A DNA stretch of 64,000 nucleotides, taken from positions 18,287-82,286 of the forward strand of contig JACRFL010000001.1 of assembly GCA_016217905.1 (NCBI GenBank). Reading direction: 5' to 3'. Origin of the DNA: Candidatus Kaiserbacteria bacterium. GTDB taxonomy: Bacteria > Patescibacteriota > Minisyncoccia > Phycocordibacterales > Phycocordibacteraceae. The notes beneath the pieces were generated by a model. The model was not told the origin of the DNA. It worked only from the letters and a program-made list of their open reading frames with translations, and did no database searches. This document shows positions 2,220 to 19,145 of this stretch, piece by piece. The position numbers were made by a program, and so were the translations under genes. Numbering within the stretch: the first letter of the stretch is position 1; every line of letters starts with the position of its first letter.

Positions 2220-3623
2220 ATGCTTCCGTTCGCACACGCGGTTGAAAAATTCAGGGGAAAATTCACCACCACGATCGGCGTCCGGGTCGAGCCGTGGCCG
2301 CTTCTTCTGGTCAGCCTCTCCGTCCTCCTCATGGCGTTCGTGTTCATGCCGGGCACGGTTTCGTTCGCATTTTCCATCGCGCTTTTTCTTGCGCCCTTAT
2401 GGCTCCCATTCGTACTCGTCGGCGGGGCATGGAAGATATGGTACGTGCTCAAACGCTCCGAATTCATTGCGGGGCAAAAATACATACTGCTCGAAATCAA
2501 GCCGCCGCGCAGCCTCGTGAAGACGCCGCTCGCCATGGAGGCGTTCCTCTCATCCCTCCACCTTACGGGGAGTGAATCGACCTGGTACCAGCGCTTTACG
2601 GGCGGGGTCCGGCCGTACTGGTCTCTGGAAATCGTTTCTCTTGAAGGAAAAATCCATTTTTACCTCTGGGGGAGGGAAGCGTATCGCCGGATGGTCGAGT
2701 CCCAATTGTATGCGCAGTATCCGGGCGTGCAGGTCGTCGAGGCAATCGATTACACCCGGCTCATCGATCCCAATTCGAAAGATTGGATTATGTGGGGATG
2801 CGACTTCAAACATACCGCCGAAACGCCCCTGCCGATCAAGACTTACGTCGAATACGGACTCGACAAGGTGCAAAAGGAACCGGAACAGGTCGATCCTCTC
2901 GCTAACCTCATCGAGTTTATGAACTCGGTCGGCAAAGGAGAACAGATCTGGCTTCAATTCATCATCCGCGCCCATCGGGGAGAGCGCTACGGCACGACGC
3001 CCGGGGGCATTACGAGCACCAAACGCAATAAAGACGACAAGCCGTACACCTGGAAGGATGAGGCAAACGACCTTGTACAGAAGATCCGCGCGGAAACCGT
3101 CAACAAGGTGAGATATCGGGACGTCTTTACCGGAGAAATGCGGGAGACGGAAGGATTCCCGAACCCGACGAAGGGGCAGATCGAGAAAATCGCGGCCATC
3201 GAACGCAACGTCTCGAAGCTCGGCTTCGATGTCGGCATACGCGGCCTGTACATGGCGAAGCCGGAACACTTTCACGGCCCGACCATTGCCCACCTCATCG
3301 CGCTCTTCAAGCCCTTTACGAGCGAGGGCTGGAACGGCCTTAATTCATCCGCGGGCATGAAGCGTTTCGACGACTATCCGTGGGAAGTCGGCGTGGAAAA
3401 AAAGAAAAGCTTCTTCCGCCGCGAGATGGTGATGCAGTATCGCCGTCGCCAATTTTTCTACGACCCCTTTTTCGAGGGAGATGTGCCGCCGAACGAAACG
3501 CCGGTCATGAGCACCGAGGAACTCGCGACCGTCTTCCATATCCCGTCGCGCGCGATCGAAGCGCCCGGCCTCGAGCGTATTCCCTCGGCGACCGGCGAAG
3601 CCCCCGCGAATCTGCCGGTGTGA
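2220..3623 (+). CDS. hypothetical membrane protein (N-terminal TM helices plus large soluble domain), function unknown
   Basis: ORF 1965..3623. The 1965 start is rejected because it overlaps the terminator and the upstream gene. The in-frame ATG at 2220 precedes hydrophobic helices (LLLVSLSVLLMAFVF, ALFLAPLWLPFVLVGG). No recognisable catalytic motif. Confidence 0.5.
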   Translation: MLPFAHAVEKFRGKFTTTIGVRVEPWPLLLVSLSVLLMAFVFMPGTVSFAFSIALFLAPLWLPFVLVGGAWKIWYVLKRSEFIAGQKYILLEIKPPRSLVKTPLAMEAFLSSLHLTGSESTWYQRFTGGVRPYWSLEIVSLEGKIHFYLWGREAYRRMVESQLYAQYPGVQVVEAIDYTRLIDPNSKDWIMWGCDFKHTAETPLPIKTYVEYGLDKVQKEPEQVDPLANLIEFMNSVGKGEQIWLQFIIRAHRGERYGTTPGGITSTKRNKDDKPYTWKDEANDLVQKIRAETVNKVRYRDVFTGEMRETEGFPNPTKGQIEKIAAIERNVSKLGFDVGIRGLYMAKPEHFHGPTIAHLIALFKPFTSEGWNGLNSSAGMKRFDDYPWEVGVEKKKSFFRREMVMQYRRRQFFYDPFFEGDVPPNETPVMSTEELATVFHIPSRAIEAPGLERIPSATGEAPANLPV

Positions 3624-3628
3624 ATCGC

Positions 3629-4585
3629 ATGGATGTTTTCCGGCGGCACGCCCCGTGGTTCGTATCGTTCGCGCTCGCGCTGCTTCTTCTCGCCGGCTAT
3701 CAGATCCTCTTTGCCGCGCCCGACGATTTCCCCCGGGGAAGCACGATAGGGATTGCCCGGGGGACGGCCGCGACGCGCATCGCGGAAGATCTCGCTGACG
3801 CGCGCGTCATCAAGCACCCTGCGCTCCTGCAGCTCCTCTTGTACGCAGCGGGGGAAAGCGCCGCGATACAAGCGGGCGCGTATCGTTTTGAAAAACCGCA
3901 AAATCTGTTCGTCGTGGCTTCGCGGCTCGTGACCGGAGCGTACGGTCTCCCTCCGGTACGCGTAACCTTTTTCGAGGGAATAACGGTGCGGGAAGCTGCG
4001 GAGAAAGTCACGGAAGCGCTGCCTGACATATCGCAAGAGGATTTTCTCAAGGAGGCGCAGCCGTATGAAGGCTATCTTTTCCCAGATACGTATTTTTTTT
4101 CACCTTCTTCCGATGCCGCCTCCGTCGCCGCGTCGATGCGCGGAAACTTCAACGAGAAAATATCGGCTCTGGCGCCGGCGATTTCCGCTACCGGCCGCAC
4201 GCTCTCCGACATCGTCATTCTGGCCTCGCTTGTTGAAAAAGAGGCGCGCACGAGCGAGAGCAGACGCCTCGTCGCCGGTATCCTCTCCAATCGTTTAAAA
4301 CTCGGCATGCCGCTCCAGGTCGACGCGGTTTTCGGCTACATCTTCGACCGCGACACGTATTCGCCCTCGCTCAAGGATCTCACCGTCGATTCGCCTTACA
4401 ATACCTACACGCACACGGGTCTCCCTCCCGGACCGATTGATAACCCCGGGCTCGACTCGCTTGAGGCGGTGGTACACCCGACGAAAACCGACTACCTCTA
4501 CTATCTCACCGGCAAGGACGGTGTAATGCATTATGCCATAACATACGCCGGTCACCAGACGAACCGAAAAAAGTATTTAGATTAG
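3629..4585 (+). CDS. mltG: endolytic murein transglycosylase MltG (YceG family)
   Basis: N-terminal TM, then the YceG-like domain with LQVDAVFGY and YNTYTHTGLPPGPIDNPG motifs. In-frame ATG at 3629. Confidence 0.8.
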   Translation: MDVFRRHAPWFVSFALALLLLAGYQILFAAPDDFPRGSTIGIARGTAATRIAEDLADARVIKHPALLQLLLYAAGESAAIQAGAYRFEKPQNLFVVASRLVTGAYGLPPVRVTFFEGITVREAAEKVTEALPDISQEDFLKEAQPYEGYLFPDTYFFSPSSDAASVAASMRGNFNEKISALAPAISATGRTLSDIVILASLVEKEARTSESRRLVAGILSNRLKLGMPLQVDAVFGYIFDRDTYSPSLKDLTVDSPYNTYTHTGLPPGPIDNPGLDSLEAVVHPTKTDYLYYLTGKDGVMHYAITYAGHQTNRKKYLD

Positions 4586-4594
4586 AATGGGCGC

Positions 4595-5533
4595 ATGGAT
4601 GTACGCGGCAAACACATATTCATAGGGCTTTCGGGAGGCGTGGATTCGGCGGTTTCTGCGGCACTTTTAAAACGAGCCGGAGCAGAAGTAACGGGCGTAT
4701 TCATCAAGGGCTGGTATCCGCCGGCCTTCGGCCCGTGCGCCTGGGCCGCGGAGCGCCGCGATGTGATGCGGGTGGCGGCGCGCCTGCAGATACCGTTTCT
4801 CACGCTCGACGCGGGCACCGAATATAAAAAGGGGGTTATCGATTACCTTCTCGCCGAGTATCGCGTGGGGCACACCCCGAATCCGGACGTCATGTGCAAC
4901 AGGGAAGTGAAGTTCGGCGCTTTCTACCGCTTCGCGAAGGCTGCCGGGGCGGACGCGATAGCGACGGGGCATTATCGTTCCGGAGAAAAAGACCAGAGCT
5001 ACTTCCTCTGGGCCGTGCCGAAAGAGATTCTGGCGGCAACGCTCTTTCCGGTGGGGAACCTTGAAAAAGATGAAGTGCGAGCGCTCGCAAAACGATTCAA
5101 CCTGTCGGTTGCGGAGAAAAAGGACAGCCAGGGCGTCTGCTTCCTCGGGAACAGATCGATGGAGGAGTTTTTGCGTGCGGAATTGGGGGACGACAACCCC
5201 GCGCTTCTCTATACCATCGGCCAGAGAATTTCGCGCCCGCACGGCCCGTGGTATGTGGTCGGTAAAAACGATGTCGCGAAAAAAGAAATCACGGTTTCAA
5301 GAACGCGGATCTCCGGCGCGCATTCGGTTCAATTTAAAGATGCGAATTGGCACGCTGAATCGGCCCGCGCCACCGAGGCGCAGTACCGGTATCGGGGCCC
5401 TCGCGTAAAAGGGCATGTCGAAAAAGACCGTTTTGTGAGCACAGAGCCGCTTCCCGAGATCCCCGTTCCCGGACAATCGACCGTCTTTTATCACAACGGA
5501 GAGCTCGTCGGTGGTGGTACTATTGTCGCATGA
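4595..5533 (+). CDS. mnmA: tRNA-specific 2-thiouridylase MnmA
   Basis: PP-loop SGGVDS. HTPNPDVMCN catalytic cysteine motif. GVCFLG. Confidence 0.85.
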   Translation: MDVRGKHIFIGLSGGVDSAVSAALLKRAGAEVTGVFIKGWYPPAFGPCAWAAERRDVMRVAARLQIPFLTLDAGTEYKKGVIDYLLAEYRVGHTPNPDVMCNREVKFGAFYRFAKAAGADAIATGHYRSGEKDQSYFLWAVPKEILAATLFPVGNLEKDEVRALAKRFNLSVAEKKDSQGVCFLGNRSMEEFLRAELGDDNPALLYTIGQRISRPHGPWYVVGKNDVAKKEITVSRTRISGAHSVQFKDANWHAESARATEAQYRYRGPRVKGHVEKDRFVSTEPLPEIPVPGQSTVFYHNGELVGGGTIVA

Positions 5534-5943
5534 ATCAAACGCGCCTGTGGGCCGCCGCGGCCATCATCGCGACTCTCGTCATTGCCGGATTCGTGCTTTC
5601 GGTACCGCACACCCGCGACGTTCCGAAGACCCCGGCTCCTCCCTCCGCGTTCGCGGGAGCTCCGTCTGTCACCATACGGGATGCGTTTAAGAGGGGCATG
5701 CATACCCTCACAGGCTCGATCATTGCTCCGGACGCGTGCTCCATTGTTTCCGCCCGCGCTTCTCGCGGCGACAACGCGTCGAGCACCAGGGACATCCTCG
5801 TCGAAGTGTCTCTGTCGGAGGATACGGGAGTTTGCCTCGAGCTTCCGACGCGCATGACCTTTGAGACAACGCTTGCGGCGCCAGCGAATTTGCCGATCGC
5901 CGTAACGATAAACGGCGCGGCAGCAAGCACGAGCGCGCCATGA
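5530..5943 (+). CDS. hypothetical protein with N-terminal TM anchor
   Basis: ATGA start/stop overlap with mnmA and with the downstream gene, implying translational coupling. Hydrophobic N-terminus AAAAIIATLVIAGFVL. Confidence 0.45.
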   Translation: MNQTRLWAAAAIIATLVIAGFVLSVPHTRDVPKTPAPPSAFAGAPSVTIRDAFKRGMHTLTGSIIAPDACSIVSARASRGDNASSTRDILVEVSLSEDTGVCLELPTRMTFETTLAAPANLPIAVTINGAAASTSAP

Positions 5944-6782
5944 CGACCCTGCCGATCATCAGCAAAGCCGACGGGACAAGCGAAGTCTTCGACTCGATGC
6001 GTCTGGTCTCCTCTTTGCGCAGGGCGGGCGCTGGCGCGCACGCCGCGGAGAGTATCGCGGAAGCGATTACGGGCGGGCTCGTTTCGGGCATGTCCTCGAA
6101 AGAGATTTACTCCCGCGCGTTCGCGCTTTTGCGCAAGGAAGCACGTCCCGTCGCCGCACGTTACGCGCTCCGGCGCGCGCTCCTCGAGCTCGGTCCGTCC
6201 GGCCACCCCTTCGAAGACTTCGTTTCGCACTTATATCGGGCGGAAGGCTGGCAGGTCGAGACGCGCAAAATAATAAAAGGAAAATGCGTATCGCACGAGG
6301 TCGACTTCTACGCGTCGCACCCGGGAGAAAATACCCATATCGCGGCCGAACTCAAGTATCACAACGATCCGGGCTACAAGACCGATCTGAAGGTGGCGCT
6401 CTACGTCAAGAGCCGTTTTGACGACATCTTCAGCTGCAATCCCGCGGTCCGCGCCTGTCCGATCGACCGCGGTCTTCTTGTCACCAATACCAAATTCACC
6501 TCGGAAGCGATCGTCTATGCGGCATGCGTCGGAGTAGAGCTCCTCGGTTGGGGGTACCCGGCGGAGAATAACCTTTTCGAGCGCATGGCCCGCGCGAAGG
6601 TATATCCTCTTACGGCGCTCACCGGACTCTCGCGTACCGAGAAGCGACTGCTTATCGAGCACGGCGTCGTCGCCGCCGACGAGATCCTCGCGGATCGACG
6701 CCGTCTCGACGTACTGCGCCTCTCCGCCACCCGCGTGGGCGAATTGCTCGCGGAAGCGGATGGTCTCCTTGCGCTTCCGTAG
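5940..6782 (+). CDS. ATP-cone domain fused to restriction-endonuclease-like (Mrr_cat/PD-(D/E)XK) domain protein
   Basis: N-terminus IISKADGTSEVFDSMRLVSSL...SKEIYSRAFALL...AARYALRRAL fits the ATP-cone pattern. Central HEVDFYAS...HIAAELKYH fits the D...ExK nuclease core. Confidence 0.55.
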   Translation: MTTLPIISKADGTSEVFDSMRLVSSLRRAGAGAHAAESIAEAITGGLVSGMSSKEIYSRAFALLRKEARPVAARYALRRALLELGPSGHPFEDFVSHLYRAEGWQVETRKIIKGKCVSHEVDFYASHPGENTHIAAELKYHNDPGYKTDLKVALYVKSRFDDIFSCNPAVRACPIDRGLLVTNTKFTSEAIVYAACVGVELLGWGYPAENNLFERMARAKVYPLTALTGLSRTEKRLLIEHGVVAADEILADRRRLDVLRLSATRVGELLAEADGLLALP

Positions 6783-6805
6783 GCGTCCCGTGATATTGTT
6801 CCCGT

Positions 6806-7282
6806 ATGATGAAAAGCTTCTCTCCCTACTCTTTTGTCGCCGGCGTCATGGTCGGCGCCCTGTTCGCGGGAGCGTGGTTTCTGCGCGAACCTCTCGCCGC
6901 CATGCGAAGCGGATCTCTGCCCGAAGAAGCGTCGAGAGTCCCTAGCGCGGCGCAGGGAAGCAGTGCGATTTCCGTCGCTGACCAGCCCGCGGGCGACAGC
7001 GTTATCGTGGAATCGGTGACCGTCCCGCCGCCCGGCGTATGGGTCGCTGTGCGCGAGGTAATCGGAGGCAGTCTGGGGAACGTGCTCGGAGCCGCGCGCG
7101 TCGGCGGACCCCGAAGCCAGGTCGTCATCTCTCTCTTGCGCGCGACCGAACCCGGCCGAGCCTACGCGATTGAGCTCTATCGCGACGATGAAAGCGGCGC
7201 GTTCGACCCCGCGACGTTCAGCGTGTACGTTGATTTCGATACCGGAGCGCGAGTTGTCGCGTACTTCACGACCGTCGAGTGA
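6806..7282 (+). CDS. hypothetical protein with N-terminal TM anchor
   Basis: Hydrophobic N-terminus SFVAGVMVGALFAGAWFL. Same strand, tightly packed with neighbours. Confidence 0.45.
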   Translation: MMKSFSPYSFVAGVMVGALFAGAWFLREPLAAMRSGSLPEEASRVPSAAQGSSAISVADQPAGDSVIVESVTVPPPGVWVAVREVIGGSLGNVLGAARVGGPRSQVVISLLRATEPGRAYAIELYRDDESGAFDPATFSVYVDFDTGARVVAYFTTVE

Positions 7283-7295
7283 TGTGTCTTCGACT

Positions 7296-8093
7296 ATGGC
7301 CTCCGGAAGTTCAAAGTCACAAGGCTACGGCGTCTTCGACCCGTTCTCGCCCGAACCGTTTCGGGTGAGCAGATCGAAGATCGATCTCTTTACCGAATGC
7401 CCGCGCTGTGCGTATCTCGACATGCGGCTCGGCGTGAAGCGTCCGTCGATGCCGGCGTTTACGCTCAACAACGCGGTCGACGAACTCCTCAAGCGCGAGT
7501 TCGATATTCACCGCGCCGAGGGCTCCAAGCACCCGCTCGTCCTGCGCTACGGTCTCGACGCGGTACCGCTTAACGACGACCGGATGGAGGAGTGGCGCGA
7601 CGCGCTTCGCCGCGGCATACGCTTCCTCCACGAACCGACGAATCTGCTCATCCGCGGCGGCATCGACGACGTGTGGGTCAACCCGGCGGGAGAGTTCATC
7701 ATTGTGGATTACAAAGCGACCAGCAAGAAGGTGGGACCGAGCACCGAAGAAGATTTATATGATTCGTATAAACGGCAAATGGAAATTTACCAATGGCTCT
7801 TCCGCAGAAATGGCTTCGCCGTCTCGCCGACCGGCTATTTCGTCTACGTGAATGGGAAATCCGATGCAAAAGCATTCGACGGCAAACTTGAATTCGATAT
7901 CGAGCTTATCCCATACACCGGCAGCGACGCGTGGGTCGAGCCGGCGATCCTCGACATGAGGGAGGTGCTCATGAGCGACGACATTCCGCCCGTGGGCACC
8001 TCCTTCGGCGGCGGGCCGTGCGAATATTGCACGTATCGGGAGAGCGCGGGGAAGATATTGCGCAAAGTTCACGCAAAAAACAGCGAGAAATAA
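7296..8093 (+). CDS. Cas4/RecB-like PD-(D/E)XK nuclease with terminal CxxC pairs
   Basis: In-frame ATG at 7296 within ORF 7170..8093. GIDDVW...IIVDYKAT (D, ExK-type core). QMEIYQWL (QhxxY motif of RecB-family nucleases). Cys pairs CPRC near the N-terminus and CEYC near the C-terminus. Confidence 0.6.
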   Translation: MASGSSKSQGYGVFDPFSPEPFRVSRSKIDLFTECPRCAYLDMRLGVKRPSMPAFTLNNAVDELLKREFDIHRAEGSKHPLVLRYGLDAVPLNDDRMEEWRDALRRGIRFLHEPTNLLIRGGIDDVWVNPAGEFIIVDYKATSKKVGPSTEEDLYDSYKRQMEIYQWLFRRNGFAVSPTGYFVYVNGKSDAKAFDGKLEFDIELIPYTGSDAWVEPAILDMREVLMSDDIPPVGTSFGGGPCEYCTYRESAGKILRKVHAKNSEK

Positions 8094-8100
8094 AACGTGT

Positions 8101-8364
8101 ATGAAAAGTTCGTTTGCCGATCGAGTGCGAGATGTAGTACGTCAAATTCCAAAAGGTGAAACACTACCCTATAGGGTAGTAGCCAGGCTGGCGGGAAGCC
8201 CGCGCGCGGCACGCGCGGTCGGCACTATTATGAAAAATAATTATGACCCAAGCGTGCCCTGTCATCGCGTTATCAGGAGCGACGGGAAGATCGGAGACTA
8301 CAATCGCGGCGGAAAAGAAAAGAAGCGGGCGCTCCTGCGGGCCGAGGGTGTCAAAGGGATCTGA
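8101..8364 (+). CDS. MGMT-family DNA-binding domain protein (methylated-DNA-protein-cysteine methyltransferase C-terminal domain, PCHRV active-site Cys present)
   Basis: 87 aa. LPYRVVARLAGSPRAARAVG...PCHRVI matches the Ogt/Ada C-terminal domain signature. Confidence 0.7.
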   Translation: MKSSFADRVRDVVRQIPKGETLPYRVVARLAGSPRAARAVGTIMKNNYDPSVPCHRVIRSDGKIGDYNRGGKEKKRALLRAEGVKGI

Positions 8365-8366
8365 AA

Positions 8367-9035
8367 ATGGAAGTCAAAATTGAATCGTCGTGGAAGGAGA
8401 GATTGAAAGACGAGTTTGCGAAAGAATATTTCGCCGAGCTCACCTCGTTCGTAAAAAAGGAGTATCAAGAAGGGAGGGTGTACCCGCACCCCAAGAACAT
8501 TTTTCGCGCGTTTGACCTGTGTCCGTTCGAGAAGGTGAAGGTGGTAATACTCGGGCAGGATCCCTATCACGGAGCGGAGCAGGCCAACGGCCTCGCGTTT
8601 GCTGTCGACGAGAACGCGACATTGCCCCCGTCGCTCCAAAATATTTTTAAGGAGATACAGAGCGATATGGGAAAGCCGCTTTTGCATACCGATGGAGATT
8701 TATCTCGATGGGCGAGACAGGGCGTCCTCCTCCTTAATGCAACCTTGACCGTCCGCGCGCATACTGCCGGCTCACACCAAGAGCGGGGCTGGGAATTATT
8801 TACCGATGCTGCCATCAAATCGCTTTCCGAAGAACGCGAGCATCTCGTCTTTATGCTCTGGGGCAATTATGCCAAAGCGAAGGGCGCGCACATCGACCGC
8901 TCCAAGCATCTGGTCCTCGAGGCCTCGCATCCCTCGCCTTTCTCCGCCGCTTCCGGCTTCTTCGGCTGCAAACATTTCAGCAAGGCGAATGACTATCTCG
9001 CTACGCACGGCGGGACACCGATAGACTGGCTTTAA
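8367..9035 (+). CDS. ung: uracil-DNA glycosylase (family 1)
   Basis: GQDPYHG water-activating motif. LLLNATLTVRAHTAGSHQ. Typical Ung length. Confidence 0.9.
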   Translation: MEVKIESSWKERLKDEFAKEYFAELTSFVKKEYQEGRVYPHPKNIFRAFDLCPFEKVKVVILGQDPYHGAEQANGLAFAVDENATLPPSLQNIFKEIQSDMGKPLLHTDGDLSRWARQGVLLLNATLTVRAHTAGSHQERGWELFTDAAIKSLSEEREHLVFMLWGNYAKAKGAHIDRSKHLVLEASHPSPFSAASGFFGCKHFSKANDYLATHGGTPIDWL

Positions 9036-9044
9036 TCCACTTGC

Positions 9045-9078
9045 ATCTACTACAAGATAGTACTAATATGTAGTACAT
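9045..9078 (+). promoter_or_regulatory. nested palindromic operator (TACTACA-AGA-TAGTACTA-ATA-TGTAGTA) overlapping the start of the antitoxin gene
   Basis: Read from the sequence. Outer 7-bp inverted repeat and inner self-complementary TAGTACTA. AT-rich, immediately 5' of the ATG at 9077. Confidence 0.5.
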
Positions 9079-9295
9079 GGCCACCATCACAATACCGCTT
9101 AGCAAAGAACTCGAATCCTTTATCGAAGGAGAGCTTAGGGCAGGGACAAGCGATTCTAAGGCGCATCTCGTCCGTTATGCGCTCTCTCGGCTTCAGGAAG
9201 AAAGGGCGCTCTCGCGTCTTCAAGAAGCCGAATTAGATATCAGGGAGGGTCGAGTTTACCAAGGAGATTTGAAGAAATTGCTCAAGCAGTTTTAA
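9077..9295 (+). CDS. type II antitoxin, ribbon-helix-helix (ParD/CopG-like)
   Basis: 72 aa. IPLSKELESFIEGELRAGTSDSKAHLVRYALSRL fits the RHH fold. Immediately precedes and nearly abuts a RelE/ParE-like ORF. Confidence 0.6.
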   Translation: MATITIPLSKELESFIEGELRAGTSDSKAHLVRYALSRLQEERALSRLQEAELDIREGRVYQGDLKKLLKQF

Positions 9296-9296
9296 T

Positions 9297-9551
9297 ATGC
9301 GGTATTTATATACTGCGCGATTTCTGCGTTCGCTTAAGAAGTGCGAAGAGGCCGTACGGGATGACATATTCCGTGCCGTGAAGTTGTTTGAGACCGGGGA
9401 AAGCAATGGTGTTTTGAAATTGCATAAGTTACACGGCAAATTCAAATTGTACCGCGCTTTTTCCGCAAACTTCTCATATCGAGTACTCATTAAGATAGAA
9501 AAAAGAACGGTGTATTATGTCGATGTCGGCACTCACGCTATTTATCTATGA
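9297..9551 (+). CDS. type II toxin, RelE/ParE superfamily
   Basis: 84 aa. LHKLHGKFKLYRAFSANFSYRVLIKIEKRTVYYVDVGTHAIY matches the RelE/ParE C-terminal pattern (L.G...R...YR.IY.I......V...GHR..IY). Low-GC local composition. Confidence 0.6.
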   Translation: MRYLYTARFLRSLKKCEEAVRDDIFRAVKLFETGESNGVLKLHKLHGKFKLYRAFSANFSYRVLIKIEKRTVYYVDVGTHAIYL

Positions 9552-10126
9552 ACCACACGCCGCAGATAAAGAAAGCAATACAGTTTGCGGCGCGCAAACA
9601 TCACGGACAGTTTCGCAAAGAAACGGAGCCGCTGCCGTGTATTACCCACCTCTTCTCGGTGGCGCTCCTGGTGGCCGAAGATGGCGCTGATGATAACGTC
9701 GTCACGGCGGCGCTTCTGCATGACACGATTGAAGACACGCCCACCACGCGCGAAGAAATCGTCGCCGCGTTTAATGAGCGGGTCGCGGAGCTCGTCGAAT
9801 CGGTGAGCGAGGTGAAAGAAGCGGGAGGGGAGATCCTTGATTGGAAGGGGCGCAAAACGCACTACCTCGCGCATTTGGAAGATGCGAGCGACGACGCGCT
9901 CCTCATCGCTCTTGCGGACAAGGTGGACAATGTCGAGAGCTGGAACGAAACATTCGAAAAAGAAGGTGCGACGTTCTTGCAGCACTGGAAACGGCCGCAA
10001 GAAGAGTATCTGTGGTTCTATGGCGAGGCGCTCCGTATCGCGCAAGCGCGATTGCCGGAACATTTGCTCACGAAACGGTATGCCGAGGCCTACCAAATTT
10101 TCGCCCGTTCCTTGGGCTCTCGATAG
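9548..10126 (+). CDS. HD-domain (p)ppGpp hydrolase-like protein (small alarmone hydrolase, RelA/SpoT HD family)
   Basis: HLFSVALLVAEDGADDNVVTAALLHDTIEDT is the RelA/SpoT-type HD hydrolase signature. No synthetase domain. Confidence 0.7.
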   Translation: MNHTPQIKKAIQFAARKHHGQFRKETEPLPCITHLFSVALLVAEDGADDNVVTAALLHDTIEDTPTTREEIVAAFNERVAELVESVSEVKEAGGEILDWKGRKTHYLAHLEDASDDALLIALADKVDNVESWNETFEKEGATFLQHWKRPQEEYLWFYGEALRIAQARLPEHLLTKRYAEAYQIFARSLGSR

Positions 10127-12051
10127 AGCGTATCGCCCTTTTTCACCCCGAATGCCGCATAAAACTCGGGAAGATTGGAGAGCGGGCCGTTGACACGGAA
10201 GCACGAGGGCGAATGCGGGTCCGTCATCACCATCGTCTTGCGGTACGCCGGTCGTTCCTGCTCGCGCTCGGTCGCCGCGTAGCCGAGGAAAAAGCGCTGT
10301 TCGGGCGTAAAGCCGGCGATATTCCTGCGGCCGGTTTTCTTGAGTCGGAGTTGGTATGCGTCATAGGCGATCGAGATGCCGCCAAGGTCGGCGATGTTCT
10401 CGCCGAGCGTGAGCCGCCCGTTTACGTTCATCCCGGGCGCGACTTCGTAATCGTTAAATTCTTTCACCAGGCGCCTTGCCTTCGCCGCGAATCGTTTCGA
10501 ATCGGTCTTCGTCCACCACGTCTTCCTATTTCCATTGCCGTCAAATTTGCACCCCTGATCGTCGAAGCCATGCGTGATCTCGTGTCCGATGACCGAACCG
10601 ATCGCGCCATAATTAAACGCGTCGTCCGCGGTAGCGTGGAAGAAAGGATGTTGAAGTATCGCGGCAGGGAAGACTATGTCATTAAGGCCGAAGCTGCAAT
10701 ACGCATTCACCGTTTGCGGACTCATGAACCATTCGTCGTGGTCAACCGGTTTTTTGAGTCTTCGAAGCGCGCGGCGGTGTTCATATTCGCTCACGCGCAT
10801 CGCATTCCCGGCGAAGTCATTGACGAATATCCGAAGCCCGCGATACGTCTTCCATTTGTTCGGATAGCCCAGCTTCCGGTGCATCTGACGGAGCTTCCGT
10901 ATCGCTTTCACCTTGGTCGCGGCGCTCATCCAGTCAAGATTCTTAATACGCGTTTCATACGCGCGGAACAGATCCGCAACGATGACCTCAACCTTATGTT
11001 TCGCTTCGTGAGGGAAGTACTCCGCCACGTAGAGTTCGCCCAGGAGCTCGCTGAGGCCCCCGTTGACCATGCGCAGTATCCGCCGCCACAAGGGCTTCAT
11101 GTGCTTTGTGCCGGAAAGCACAATGCTGTAAAAAGTAAAACTTTCTTTCTCGAGTTTGGGCGTAAGAACGGATGAAAAATCACCGACAATATGGGTGCGC
11201 AGATACGTCTTCCACGATTCGATTGGGAAGGTATGGAGCATACGTTCGGCGGCGATAAAGAAATCAGGCTGCATCACAACAACCTCCCCCGGCTTCGCGC
11301 CAAGACTTTTAAAGTACTCCTTCCAATCGACACCTTTCGCGAGTTTCTGGAGTTGAGACAGCGATTTTTTATGATACGTCTTATCGACGTCGCGCAGGTC
11401 TTCTTTTTTCATCGAGACTTTGGCGAGCGCGGTTTCTATTTCGAGCACAATTGCCGCCTCCTGTCGGGCCTCCCTAGGACGACCGGCAAGTTCCAAGAGT
11501 CGCACCAGGTGCTTTTCATAGGCGCTTCGTACGCGCCGCGACTCAGCGTCGTCCTTTATGTAATAATCACGGTCTGGCATACCGAGACCACCCTGGCCGA
11601 GATGGATAATGTACTTCTCGCTATCTTTCATATCCTGATCAATGCCGATGCCCCAAATGCCGCCCGAGCCGATGCGCTCGAGGTGTGCAATGGTACGGAC
11701 CACATCCTCCGGTGTCTTGATGTTTTCGATGCGTTTCAAGAGCGGTTGGAGCGGCGCTAGGCCGAGCGAGCGGCGCCGTTTGAGATGAATGCCGGAACGG
11801 TAGAGATCGCGAATCATTTGCTCGGCGCTCTCGGTCTTTGTGCGCTTTTTTGATGTGACCTTCTTCAGCAGTGTTTGAAGCTGTTTGTCGGTCGTGTGGC
11901 GCAGCATGGTAAAAGAGCCCCAGCGCGCCTCCGCTTTAGGTATCGGATTGCGCTTCATCCACGCCCCGCTCGCGTAGTGAAAAAAATCGTCCTGCGGGCG
12001 CACCTTCGTATCAATATCCCGCGTATCAAATCCCCATCCGTTTTTTCTCAT
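10090..12051 (-). CDS. pepO: M13 family zinc metalloendopeptidase (PepO/neprilysin-like)
   Basis: HEITHGFDDQG (HExxH). ENIADLGG. NAYC. C-terminal ...AKIW typical of M13 peptidases. Confidence 0.85.
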   Translation of the reverse strand: MRKNGWGFDTRDIDTKVRPQDDFFHYASGAWMKRNPIPKAEARWGSFTMLRHTTDKQLQTLLKKVTSKKRTKTESAEQMIRDLYRSGIHLKRRRSLGLAPLQPLLKRIENIKTPEDVVRTIAHLERIGSGGIWGIGIDQDMKDSEKYIIHLGQGGLGMPDRDYYIKDDAESRRVRSAYEKHLVRLLELAGRPREARQEAAIVLEIETALAKVSMKKEDLRDVDKTYHKKSLSQLQKLAKGVDWKEYFKSLGAKPGEVVVMQPDFFIAAERMLHTFPIESWKTYLRTHIVGDFSSVLTPKLEKESFTFYSIVLSGTKHMKPLWRRILRMVNGGLSELLGELYVAEYFPHEAKHKVEVIVADLFRAYETRIKNLDWMSAATKVKAIRKLRQMHRKLGYPNKWKTYRGLRIFVNDFAGNAMRVSEYEHRRALRRLKKPVDHDEWFMSPQTVNAYCSFGLNDIVFPAAILQHPFFHATADDAFNYGAIGSVIGHEITHGFDDQGCKFDGNGNRKTWWTKTDSKRFAAKARRLVKEFNDYEVAPGMNVNGRLTLGENIADLGGISIAYDAYQLRLKKTGRRNIAGFTPEQRFFLGYAATEREQERPAYRKTMVMTDPHSPSCFRVNGPLSNLPEFYAAFGVKKGDTLYREPKERAKIW

Positions 12052-18200: not shown

Positions 18201-19145
18201 ATGGAATACCACATCACACTTCCGAGCAAGCCTCGCATTGTCTCCGAAGAGGGCACGCAGGGCATTTATGAGATCGACTCGCTCTATCCGGGTTACGGTC
18301 ACACGCTCGGGAACAGCCTTCGCCGCATTATCCTTTCCTCGCTCCCCGGGGCGGCGGTGACACAGGTGAAGATCGAGGGCGTTCCGCACGAATTCGCTTC
18401 CATCGACGGCGCGCGCGAGACGGTCATGGAGATCCTCCTTAACCTCAAGCGCGTTCATTTCGTCCTCCATGGCGACGAGCCGCAGACCATTTCGCTTGCC
18501 GCCAAAGGGCCGGGCGCTGTTGCCGCAAAAGATTTCAAGCTTCCGAGCCAGGTCGAGATAAAGAATCCAGAACAGCACATATGCGACCTCTCGGGGAAGG
18601 TGACGCTCGAGCTTGAGGCGACTATAGAGCGCGGCCTCGGCTACGTCTCACGCGAGGTGCTCACCAAAGAAAAAGTCGACATCGGCACCATCGCGCTCGA
18701 CGCGACCTTCACGCCGATTCGTCGCGTGAACTATGAAGTGGAGAATATGCGTGTCGGCGACCGCACCGACTTCAACCGACTCCGCATTCTTATCGAGACC
18801 AACGGGACGATCGCGCCGCGGGAGGCGCTTGAGCGCTCCATCGAGACGATGGTTCACCAGCTGCGCGCGGTCATCGGCTTCCAGGAGGCCGAAACGGCCG
18901 GAGAGGTCCTCGCCACGTCAAAGGCCGCCGGAGGCGCCTCCGACGCGGCCAAGGTGAGGATCGCCGATCTCGGTCTCTCCGCCCGCGTCGCCTCGGCGCT
19001 CGAGAACGCGGGCATCAAGAGCGCAGCCGGTCTCGCGAGAAAGGCCGCGAGCGCGCTGAAGGAGCTCGACGGCATCGGCGAAAAGGCGATCGAAGAGATC
19101 TCCGAAGCGCTCGCCGGACACGGCCTCACGCTCAAAAGCGAGTAA
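18201..19145 (+). CDS. rpoA: DNA-directed RNA polymerase subunit alpha
   Basis: [24 protein letters not shown]. Alpha-CTD HhH [18 protein letters not shown]. Confidence 0.95.
   Translation: [314 protein letters not shown]

Follow-up and report, generated by a model that had tools for sequence, protein, structure and literature searches.

The 64,000-nucleotide stretch of Candidatus Kaiserbacteria DNA analysed here (the window; positions 18,287 to 82,286 of contig JACRFL010000001.1, assembly GCA_016217905.1) carries at 4595-9035 a tightly packed gene cluster that is best read as the distal part of a long housekeeping operon of the Paceibacteria class of the candidate phyla radiation (CPR), in which four DNA-acting enzymes follow the tRNA-modification gene mnmA. 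The cluster is a vertically inherited housekeeping operon and not a phage-defence island. It is ordinary-looking and deeply conserved, with one interesting uncharacterised component, a putative ATP-cone-gated PD-(D/E)XK nuclease that we refer to as FUS. Our analysis demonstrates the domain identities of the encoded proteins, intact catalytic and nucleotide-site residues, and a conserved, translationally coupled linkage. Nucleotide-pool-responsive DNA degradation, which the initial annotation of this DNA had proposed for the cluster, is a live reading as a putative activity of the ATP-cone nuclease itself.

The ATP-cone is an allosteric sensor of the balance between dATP and ATP, and the characterised examples known to us are confined to ribonucleotide reductases (RNRs) and the repressor NrdR. 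If FUS is gated by its cone, it would be the first case of an ATP-cone effector that acts beyond the control of ribonucleotide reductase, and a core-like, sensor-wired nuclease would show how minimal cells make the cleavage of DNA, or of RNA, depend on their supply of nucleotides. Such coupling would matter especially for CPR bacteria because the general view is that they do not make nucleotides de novo and depend on scavenged ones. The question is experimentally tractable because cultured Flavobacteriaceae (Aequorivita, Arenibacter) carry the same protein family.

Seven open reading frames on the plus strand lie within 4595-9035, according to the reading-frame list and the window sequence:

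4595-5533, plus strand, MnmA, 312 residues
5530-5943, plus strand, TM1, 137 residues
5940-6782, plus strand, FUS, 280 residues
6806-7282, plus strand, TM2, 158 residues
7296-8093, plus strand, second nuclease, 265 residues
8101-8364, plus strand, MGMT, 87 residues
8367-9035, plus strand, Ung, 222 residues

The initial annotation had counted eight genes in this run; the tight packing and shared direction stand, and the count is seven. The two ATGA overlaps that it reported, at 5530-5533 and 5940-5943, can be read straight off the sequence, and the remaining intergenic gaps are 23, 13, 7 and 2 nt. The tight translational coupling that it proposed is also kept in related loci, where ATGA overlaps or gaps of 0-10 nt occur throughout. 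The arrangement is far beyond chance, the same overlaps being found in dozens of species-level genomes. The co-directional run exceeds the limits first drawn for it: upstream it takes in YceG and a DUF8128-like gene, and downstream it goes on through ParD, RelE and HD genes to 10126. A promoter and terminator scan, uninformative within the cluster, gave no convincing plus-strand terminator within the run; hairpins resembling terminators occur at 2138-2197, before the DUF8128-like gene. No RNA element was found in an Rfam scan of the cluster.

Domain composition of FUS and its partners

FUS of the window is identical to HY972_00160, a protein of a Candidatus Kaiserbacteria metagenome-assembled genome, and consists of three domains:

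5955-6185, plus strand, residues ~6-82, ATP-cone (Pfam, Foldseek)
6207-6554, plus strand, residues ~90-205, AF1548/Mrr-type PD-(D/E)XK nuclease (Pfam, PDB 1Y88)
6573-6773, plus strand, residues ~212-278, AF1548-like C-terminal helical domain (Pfam AF1548-like_C)

The assignment of an ATP-cone and an Mrr-like nuclease, already made in the initial annotation, is confirmed by homology to AF1548 and by superposition of the cone. An AlphaFold2 model of FUS has a pLDDT of 95.7 and a pTM of 0.91, with a pLDDT of about 96 over residues 1-85. When the model was compared with the PDB by Foldseek, its N-terminal 82-85 residues, with the cone fold of a beta-hairpin and four helices, fell on the ATP-cones of NrdR and class III RNR with an rmsd of 1.6-2.0 Å. 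About 83 FUS residues superpose on the cones of NrdR and of class I and III RNRs, at 21-26% identity, and a search with the family profile finds NrdR at E~5e-3. The output differs: it is a zinc-ribbon repressor or a reductase in the known proteins, and a nuclease in FUS. Residue conservation was assessed in an alignment of 35 sequences of 32-75% identity. In the cone, K9, G12 and F17 never vary and K21 occurs in at least 90% of sequences, so that the nucleotide-contact motif K-x-x-G-x-x-E-x-F...K is present; we take these residues to be equivalent to the nucleotide-contacting region of K9, E15 and K21 in Escherichia coli NrdA. The linker to the nuclease, LGPSGxPFE, is likewise invariant, including G85, G88, F91 and E92.

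The nuclease domain scores 22.5 bits with Mrr_cat, for which the cut-off is 21, and AF1548-like_C is matched as well. Homology to the Archaeoglobus fulgidus protein AF1548 (PDB 1Y88; phmmer E=2.8e-23, family profile E=1.9e-50) extends over residues 94-275, and AF1548 is also the structure matched by the FUS model (1y88, E=3e-13, TM 0.77 on the target). The initial annotation had raised a loss of catalytic residues as grounds for doubt; E120, D122, E137 and K139 of the set HExD...ExK are all invariant, which predicts a catalytically competent nuclease. FUS and AF1548 have in common the nuclease core, the C-terminal helical domain and the catalytic D...ExK. Unlike FUS, AF1548 has no ATP-cone, the match starting at its chain residue ~22. 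AF1548 has been predicted to be a restriction-type nuclease with D38, E51 and K53 as catalytic residues (GOS paper, PMC1821046) and was grouped with Mrr_cat in a census of PD-(D/E)XK proteins (PMC3424549). Our literature search turned up neither work on a fusion of ATP-cone and nuclease nor a functional study of AF1548. Because AF1548 is itself uncharacterised, it gives the fold of FUS and not the function.

Weaker Foldseek matches of the FUS model are the nuclease domains of MspJI, Can2, Card1 and Cdn1. The last three, from type III CRISPR systems, follow the same logic as FUS in joining a nucleotide sensor to a PD-(D/E)XK nuclease. Their sensor is a CARF domain, whereas that of FUS is an ATP-cone, and FUS has no CRISPR or cyclase partner and behaves genomically like a housekeeping gene. 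We also considered, and rejected, identification of FUS as a Type IV (Mrr) restriction enzyme: it lacks a recognition domain for modified DNA, the N-terminus being the ATP-cone, and its distribution is housekeeping-like. Across more than 100 loci it is syntenic and slow-evolving rather than patchy or mobile. An exhaustive HMMER search of 1.84 billion representatives placed 1,049 clusters at 50% identity in the FUS family, 390 of them at E<1e-30. Nearly all homologues have ~270-290 residues and align over their whole length, so that the arrangement of three domains is both old and stable. The FUS of the window, at 280 residues, ends 23 nt short of TM2; in the majority of its relatives the protein has 289 residues and its gene an ATGA overlap with TM2, a non-conserved C-terminal tail having been lost in the window (6755-6806).

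The protein encoded at 7296-8093 is, as judged from its sequence, a stand-alone RecB-family PD-(D/E)XK nuclease. Residues 23-249 match PDDEXK_1 (PF12705; E=8e-12, 46 bits against a cut-off of 22). The CxxC pairs noted at both termini in the initial annotation proved to be conserved: 80 homologues all have C35, C38, C242 and C245, and D124, D125, D138, Y139, K140, Q161 and Y165 are invariant as well; the CxxC...CxxC arrangement forms a putative metal site joining the N and C termini. The fold neighbours of its structural model are AdnA, Cas4, RecE, MGME1 and Exo5, which are DNA-end or flap nucleases; these matches hold at the family level because the alignment is shallow and the pLDDT 75.8. It has the D...DxK and QxxxY motifs of the Cas4, AddB-AdnA, Exo5 and MGME1 nucleases, and its four cysteines are a putative counterpart of their metal-cluster staple. 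The earlier description of a Cas4-like nuclease stands for the fold and fails for Cas4 proper, with 31.1 bits against Cas4 TIGR00372, where the cut-off is 65, and 30-34 bits with the PADLOC Cas4 models. Identity as a true Cas4 was rejected on the model score, on context (no cas neighbours and no array) and on cysteine spacing, which is C...CxxCx5C in the Cas4 type and CxxC...CxxC here, in a protein that stands alone without a helicase.

The initial identification of MGMT and ung was correct. The MGMT gene matches Pfam DNA_binding_1 (E=3.5e-28, 97.7 bits) and TIGR00589 (E=6e-21); its 87-residue product is a single domain that keeps the PCHR active-site cysteine in VPCHRVIRSDG, the N-terminal domain of full-length Ogt being absent. 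Ung scores 322.7 bits with NF003589, against a cut-off of 223, and contains GQDPYH and HPSPFS in its translation, from which it is a bona fide family-1 uracil-DNA glycosylase (UDG). A family-1 Ung and an MGMT active-site cysteine are also features of ung/ogt base-repair clusters. Here, unlike in those clusters, ung and the gene for the 87-residue MGMT are part of a long operon that also encodes a tRNA-modification enzyme and the two uncharacterised nucleases. MnmA is a short form of the tRNA 2-thiouridine synthase (NCBIfam NF001138 E=1.3e-80; Pfam tRNA_Me_trans E=3e-60).

The initial annotation had regarded TM1 and TM2 as two small membrane-anchored proteins acting as membrane partners of the nucleases. 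Each does have a single N-terminal hydrophobic helix (KD19 maximum 2.34 at residues 7-25 in TM1; KD19 1.76 at residues 8-26 in TM2), but the partner role does not hold, TM1 being lineage-restricted and TM2 dispensable. TM1, with ATGA overlaps at both ends, has no match in Pfam, NCBIfam or PADLOC; it evolves fast (median identity 51%, against 75% for FUS) and is largely absent below 68% FUS identity. TM2 matches Pfam DUF7282 at 28.2 bits, where the cut-off is 27. The two are passengers, TM2 being optional between the two nucleases. That they are paralogues was rejected, as they have no mutual similarity.

We give roughly even odds to an interpretation of the cluster as a genome-maintenance operon in which an adenine-nucleotide-gated endonuclease acts with an exonuclease partner. 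FUS would be an AF1548/Mrr-type PD-(D/E)XK endonuclease carrying an N-terminal ATP-cone and a C-terminal helical DNA-binding domain. Adenine nucleotides, ATP as opposed to dATP, would bind to the cone, and binding would switch the oligomeric or conformational state of FUS, turning DNA incision on or off in the manner of RNR and NrdR. Strand cleavage would thus be tied to the nucleotide and energy status of the cell. The Cas4-fold exonuclease may then process the nick, flap or end, and the base-damage context would be provided by Ung and MGMT.

Conservation of the operon in the CPR

Related FUS loci numbered 71 from species-level genomes and 80 from metagenomes. Neighbours were counted in adequately flanked loci only and are given below for three bands of FUS identity, at least 68%, 50-60% and below 50%, in that order:

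MnmA upstream of FUS: 49/49, 27/27, 32/43
Cas4-fold nuclease downstream of FUS: 34/34, 19/21, 16/28
Ung: 34/34, 20/21, 6/28
MGMT: 20/34, 5/21, 14/28
TM2: 22/34, 0/21, 9/28

At least one repair gene (nuclease, MGMT or UDG) follows FUS in 34/34, 21/22 and 20/31 loci across the same bands. The initial annotation had allowed that these genes might never be linked elsewhere. Instead the order DUF8128-YceG-MnmA-FUS-nuclease-(MGMT)-UDG recurs in more than 100 loci of Paceibacteria type, at FUS identities down to ~40%. In 12 distant loci (L125, L131, L148, L129, L094, L096, L112, L123, L126, L141, L142 and L144) a family-4 UDG (TIGR00758, 182 bits) takes the place of the family-1 Ung, and in the first three of these it comes immediately after FUS. 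The switch of UDG family is a non-orthologous, analogous replacement within the same operon. In L157 the order is rpsP-khpA-trmD-mnmA-x-FUS-PDDEXK-MGMT-PCMT-UDG (PCMT, protein-L-isoaspartate methyltransferase), the distal segment having been kept despite a different upstream context.

Two types of the second nuclease, ~55% identical to each other, share the one slot in genomes whose FUS is 72-78% identical to that of the window. The minority type (L002, L009, L014, L015, L016, L028, L032 and L063) resembles the nuclease found in distant lineages more closely, at up to 77%, which suggests replacement or accelerated evolution. One locus labelled Alphaproteobacteria bacterium MAG01 (L071, JASGCN010000003.1) has the CPR-type block DUF8128-YceG-MnmA-FUS-nuclease at 26-46% identity, and this label may be the result of mis-binning.

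The initial annotation had offered a defence module with membrane partners, and an ordinary DNA-repair operon as its fallback. In an anti-phage or anti-mobile-DNA system, the cone would sense a nucleotide pool altered by phage and free the Mrr-type nuclease, with the second nuclease and the membrane proteins as helpers or effectors. The architecture does parallel ligand-gated PD-(D/E)XK effectors, as the weak fold matches to Can2, Card1, Cdn1 and MspJI indicate; a PycTM-domain protein adjoins one FUS copy (L122), the Cas4-fold nuclease has two divergent types in one slot, and a ParD/RelE pair lies near the cluster. However, a PADLOC search with the six cluster proteins at E<=0.1 gave no match for FUS, TM1 or TM2. 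A scan of 2.9 million viral contigs with the family alignment found no viral relatives of FUS, and a fold search of BFVD found no viral match to its full architecture, only matches to single domains. FUS is near-universal, syntenic and slow-evolving: median identities among close relatives are 75% for FUS, 78.5% for the nuclease, 79% for Ung, 69% for MnmA, 61% for YceG and 51% for TM1, so that FUS roughly equals Ung in conservation and surpasses both MnmA and YceG. The locus is embedded in core genes with no signatures of mobile elements. A class I aminoacyl-tRNA synthetase (aaRS), a sigma-70-like protein, AlaRS, RpoA, DnaK/J and TyrRS are encoded around it in the window, and a repeat scan of 3500-10300 detected neither a CRISPR array nor flanking inverted repeats. 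The anchored proteins are dispensable and the toxin-antitoxin pair is a one-off insertion. In some relatives, genes of unrelated housekeeping function are interspersed among those of the cluster. We consider a defence function very improbable. Synteny and conservation lie nearer to the fallback of the initial annotation than to its defence reading, and tight packing together with nuclease domains in a CPR genome is no evidence of a defence island.

FUS outside the CPR and the competing explanations

The FUS family is also found in cultured Flavobacteriaceae (Aequorivita, Arenibacter, Altibacter), where the proteins are annotated as "restriction endonuclease" or "ATP cone domain-containing protein". 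Three of these loci contain an operon in which an array of Usp genes, FUS and a beta-CASP metallo-beta-lactamase (RMMBL) nuclease gene follow one another. In a fourth, FUS overlaps the beta-CASP gene, and in a fifth (L147) a P-type ATPase gene stands between them, which makes five loci outside the CPR in which FUS is paired with a beta-CASP nuclease:

L122, 8404-14446, minus strand, Flavobacteriaceae FUS operon
L151, 2529-9188, plus strand, Flavobacteriaceae FUS operon
L156, 8224-12843, minus strand, Flavobacteriaceae FUS operon
L154, 56-2283, plus strand, FUS overlapping beta-CASP

The Usp proteins of the arrays are ~280 residues long, and L122 and L156 have two FUS paralogues each. FUS together with a second nuclease of varying fold is a recurring theme, and the pairing with beta-CASP supports an endonuclease-plus-second-nuclease logic. 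Other distant contexts of FUS are unrelated, namely GPDH, an ATP synthase operon, and FtsW in the vicinity of UvrA and RuvB. In L122 a gene for a 191-residue PycTM (Pycsar effector transmembrane) protein, at 7823-8398, directly follows one FUS copy, a single instance.

Several findings weigh against the genome-maintenance interpretation. The ATP-cone of FUS scores 23.6 bits with PF03477, under the Pfam gathering cut-off of 25.8. Its call is sub-threshold yet supported by the fold and by conservation of the motif, and a precomputed PF03477 match exists for many homologues 76-82% identical to FUS. Position 10 of the cone is Ala, where RNR cones have Arg after the Lys. For the FUS family as a whole, the literature yielded only the 2007 fold-based prediction for AF1548. 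Unrelated genes are inserted in the cluster in some genomes: a Mur ligase gene (often on the opposite strand), AsnB or a FemAB-like gene separates FUS from the nuclease in L020, L022, L027, L030 and L079, and PCMT separates MGMT from UDG in L005 and L157. The most persistent neighbour of FUS is mnmA, which encodes a tRNA enzyme rather than a repair protein. The Usp arrays and P-type ATPases of the flavobacterial loci point to stress or energy physiology, and not to base repair. Finally, in the band below 50% identity, repair genes follow FUS in 19/21 loci with mnmA upstream and in 0/7 loci without it. The repair association thus belongs to the CPR block and has not been independently re-assembled elsewhere, and because the linkage is confined to the CPR backbone, inheritance alone could explain much of it.

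A less likely explanation is that there is no functional coupling at all, the gene order having simply been inherited in streamlined CPR genomes while FUS performs an unrelated housekeeping role. That role may be RNA- or tRNA-related, given the constant pairing with mnmA. The backbone aaRS-sigma-DUF8128-YceG-MnmA-FUS-AlaRS is still intact at a FUS identity of 34%, in L074, which has no repair genes between FUS and AlaRS; the insertions and the absence of repair linkage outside the backbone agree with this explanation. Yet the UDG family was replaced in place, the segment from FUS through the nuclease and MGMT to UDG was kept under another upstream context (L157), and FUS pairs independently with a second nuclease in Flavobacteriaceae. 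Together these three observations suggest selection for the association. We judge an absence of coupling to be unlikely, while inheritance remains a serious alternative to selection as the source of the linkage.

The main rival to the genome-maintenance operon is a role in nucleotide salvage and turnover, in which a pool-gated FUS and a processive exonuclease would degrade DNA or RNA when nucleotide pools fall and so refill them. This could be a housekeeping activity in the CPR, with an exonuclease of Cas4 fold, and a stress response in Flavobacteriaceae, with one of beta-CASP type. All ATP-cones characterised so far sense nucleotide pools, and the fold of the FUS cone is supported and its motif residues are invariant. 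The operons that join Usp arrays, FUS and beta-CASP, the overlapping genes of L154 and the arrangement in L147 would all fit, as would the very slow evolution of FUS, which suits a core metabolic role. A gene for a YfbR-like 5'-deoxynucleotidase directly after FUS in L129 and L141 is likewise in favour, as is the HD_4 hydrolase gene near FUS in the window and in 14/34 close loci. The fixed companions of FUS in the CPR, however, are damage-specific enzymes (Ung or UDG4, and MGMT) and not nucleotide kinases, phosphorylases or transporters, and a bulk nuclease in the cytosol would threaten the genome. On balance we regard salvage as a minority prospect. The 5'-deoxynucleotidase genes themselves belong to the HD_3 family, that of L129 lying at 7839-8447.

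A broader proposal goes beyond the CPR operon. FUS may found a widespread, uncharacterised class of adenine-nucleotide-gated nucleases, represented in the CPR, the Flavobacteriaceae and other lineages by about 1,000 clusters at 50% identity. The class would make the cleavage of nucleic acids depend on the ATP/dNTP status of the cell, acting as a two-nuclease module with interchangeable exonucleases, of RecB/Cas4 fold in the CPR and of beta-CASP type in Flavobacteriaceae. We advance this tentatively, with the balance of our opinion somewhat on the side of doubt.

Genes flanking the cluster

The co-directional run is continued on both sides by the following genes:

upstream context from 2400, ending at 3623, plus strand, DUF8128-like gene, whose homologue in L074 carries PF26449 DUF8128
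3629-4585, plus strand, YceG/MltG (YceG E=2.7e-72)
9077-9551, plus strand, ParD-like/RelE-like pair (NCBIfam and Pfam; GC 0.456)
9548-10126, plus strand, HD_4 SpoT-hydrolase-like gene (NCBIfam and Pfam)

The DUF8128-like gene and YceG are kept upstream in most related loci. The ParD/RelE pair, which sits between ung and the HD gene, is markedly lower in GC than its surroundings (0.456 against ~0.56-0.62) and is present in 1/71 related loci (L032), the HD gene being present in 15/71; the pair has the look of a recent insertion. A short way before the DUF8128-like gene, at 1084-2157, is encoded a protein of 357 residues with sigma-70 region 4 and a HARE-HTH domain, and a sigma-70-r4 protein occupies the same position in L074. 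At the other end of the run, the HD gene on the plus strand and an M13 peptidase gene on the minus strand are convergent, with a 37-nt overlap of the 3' ends (10090-10126).

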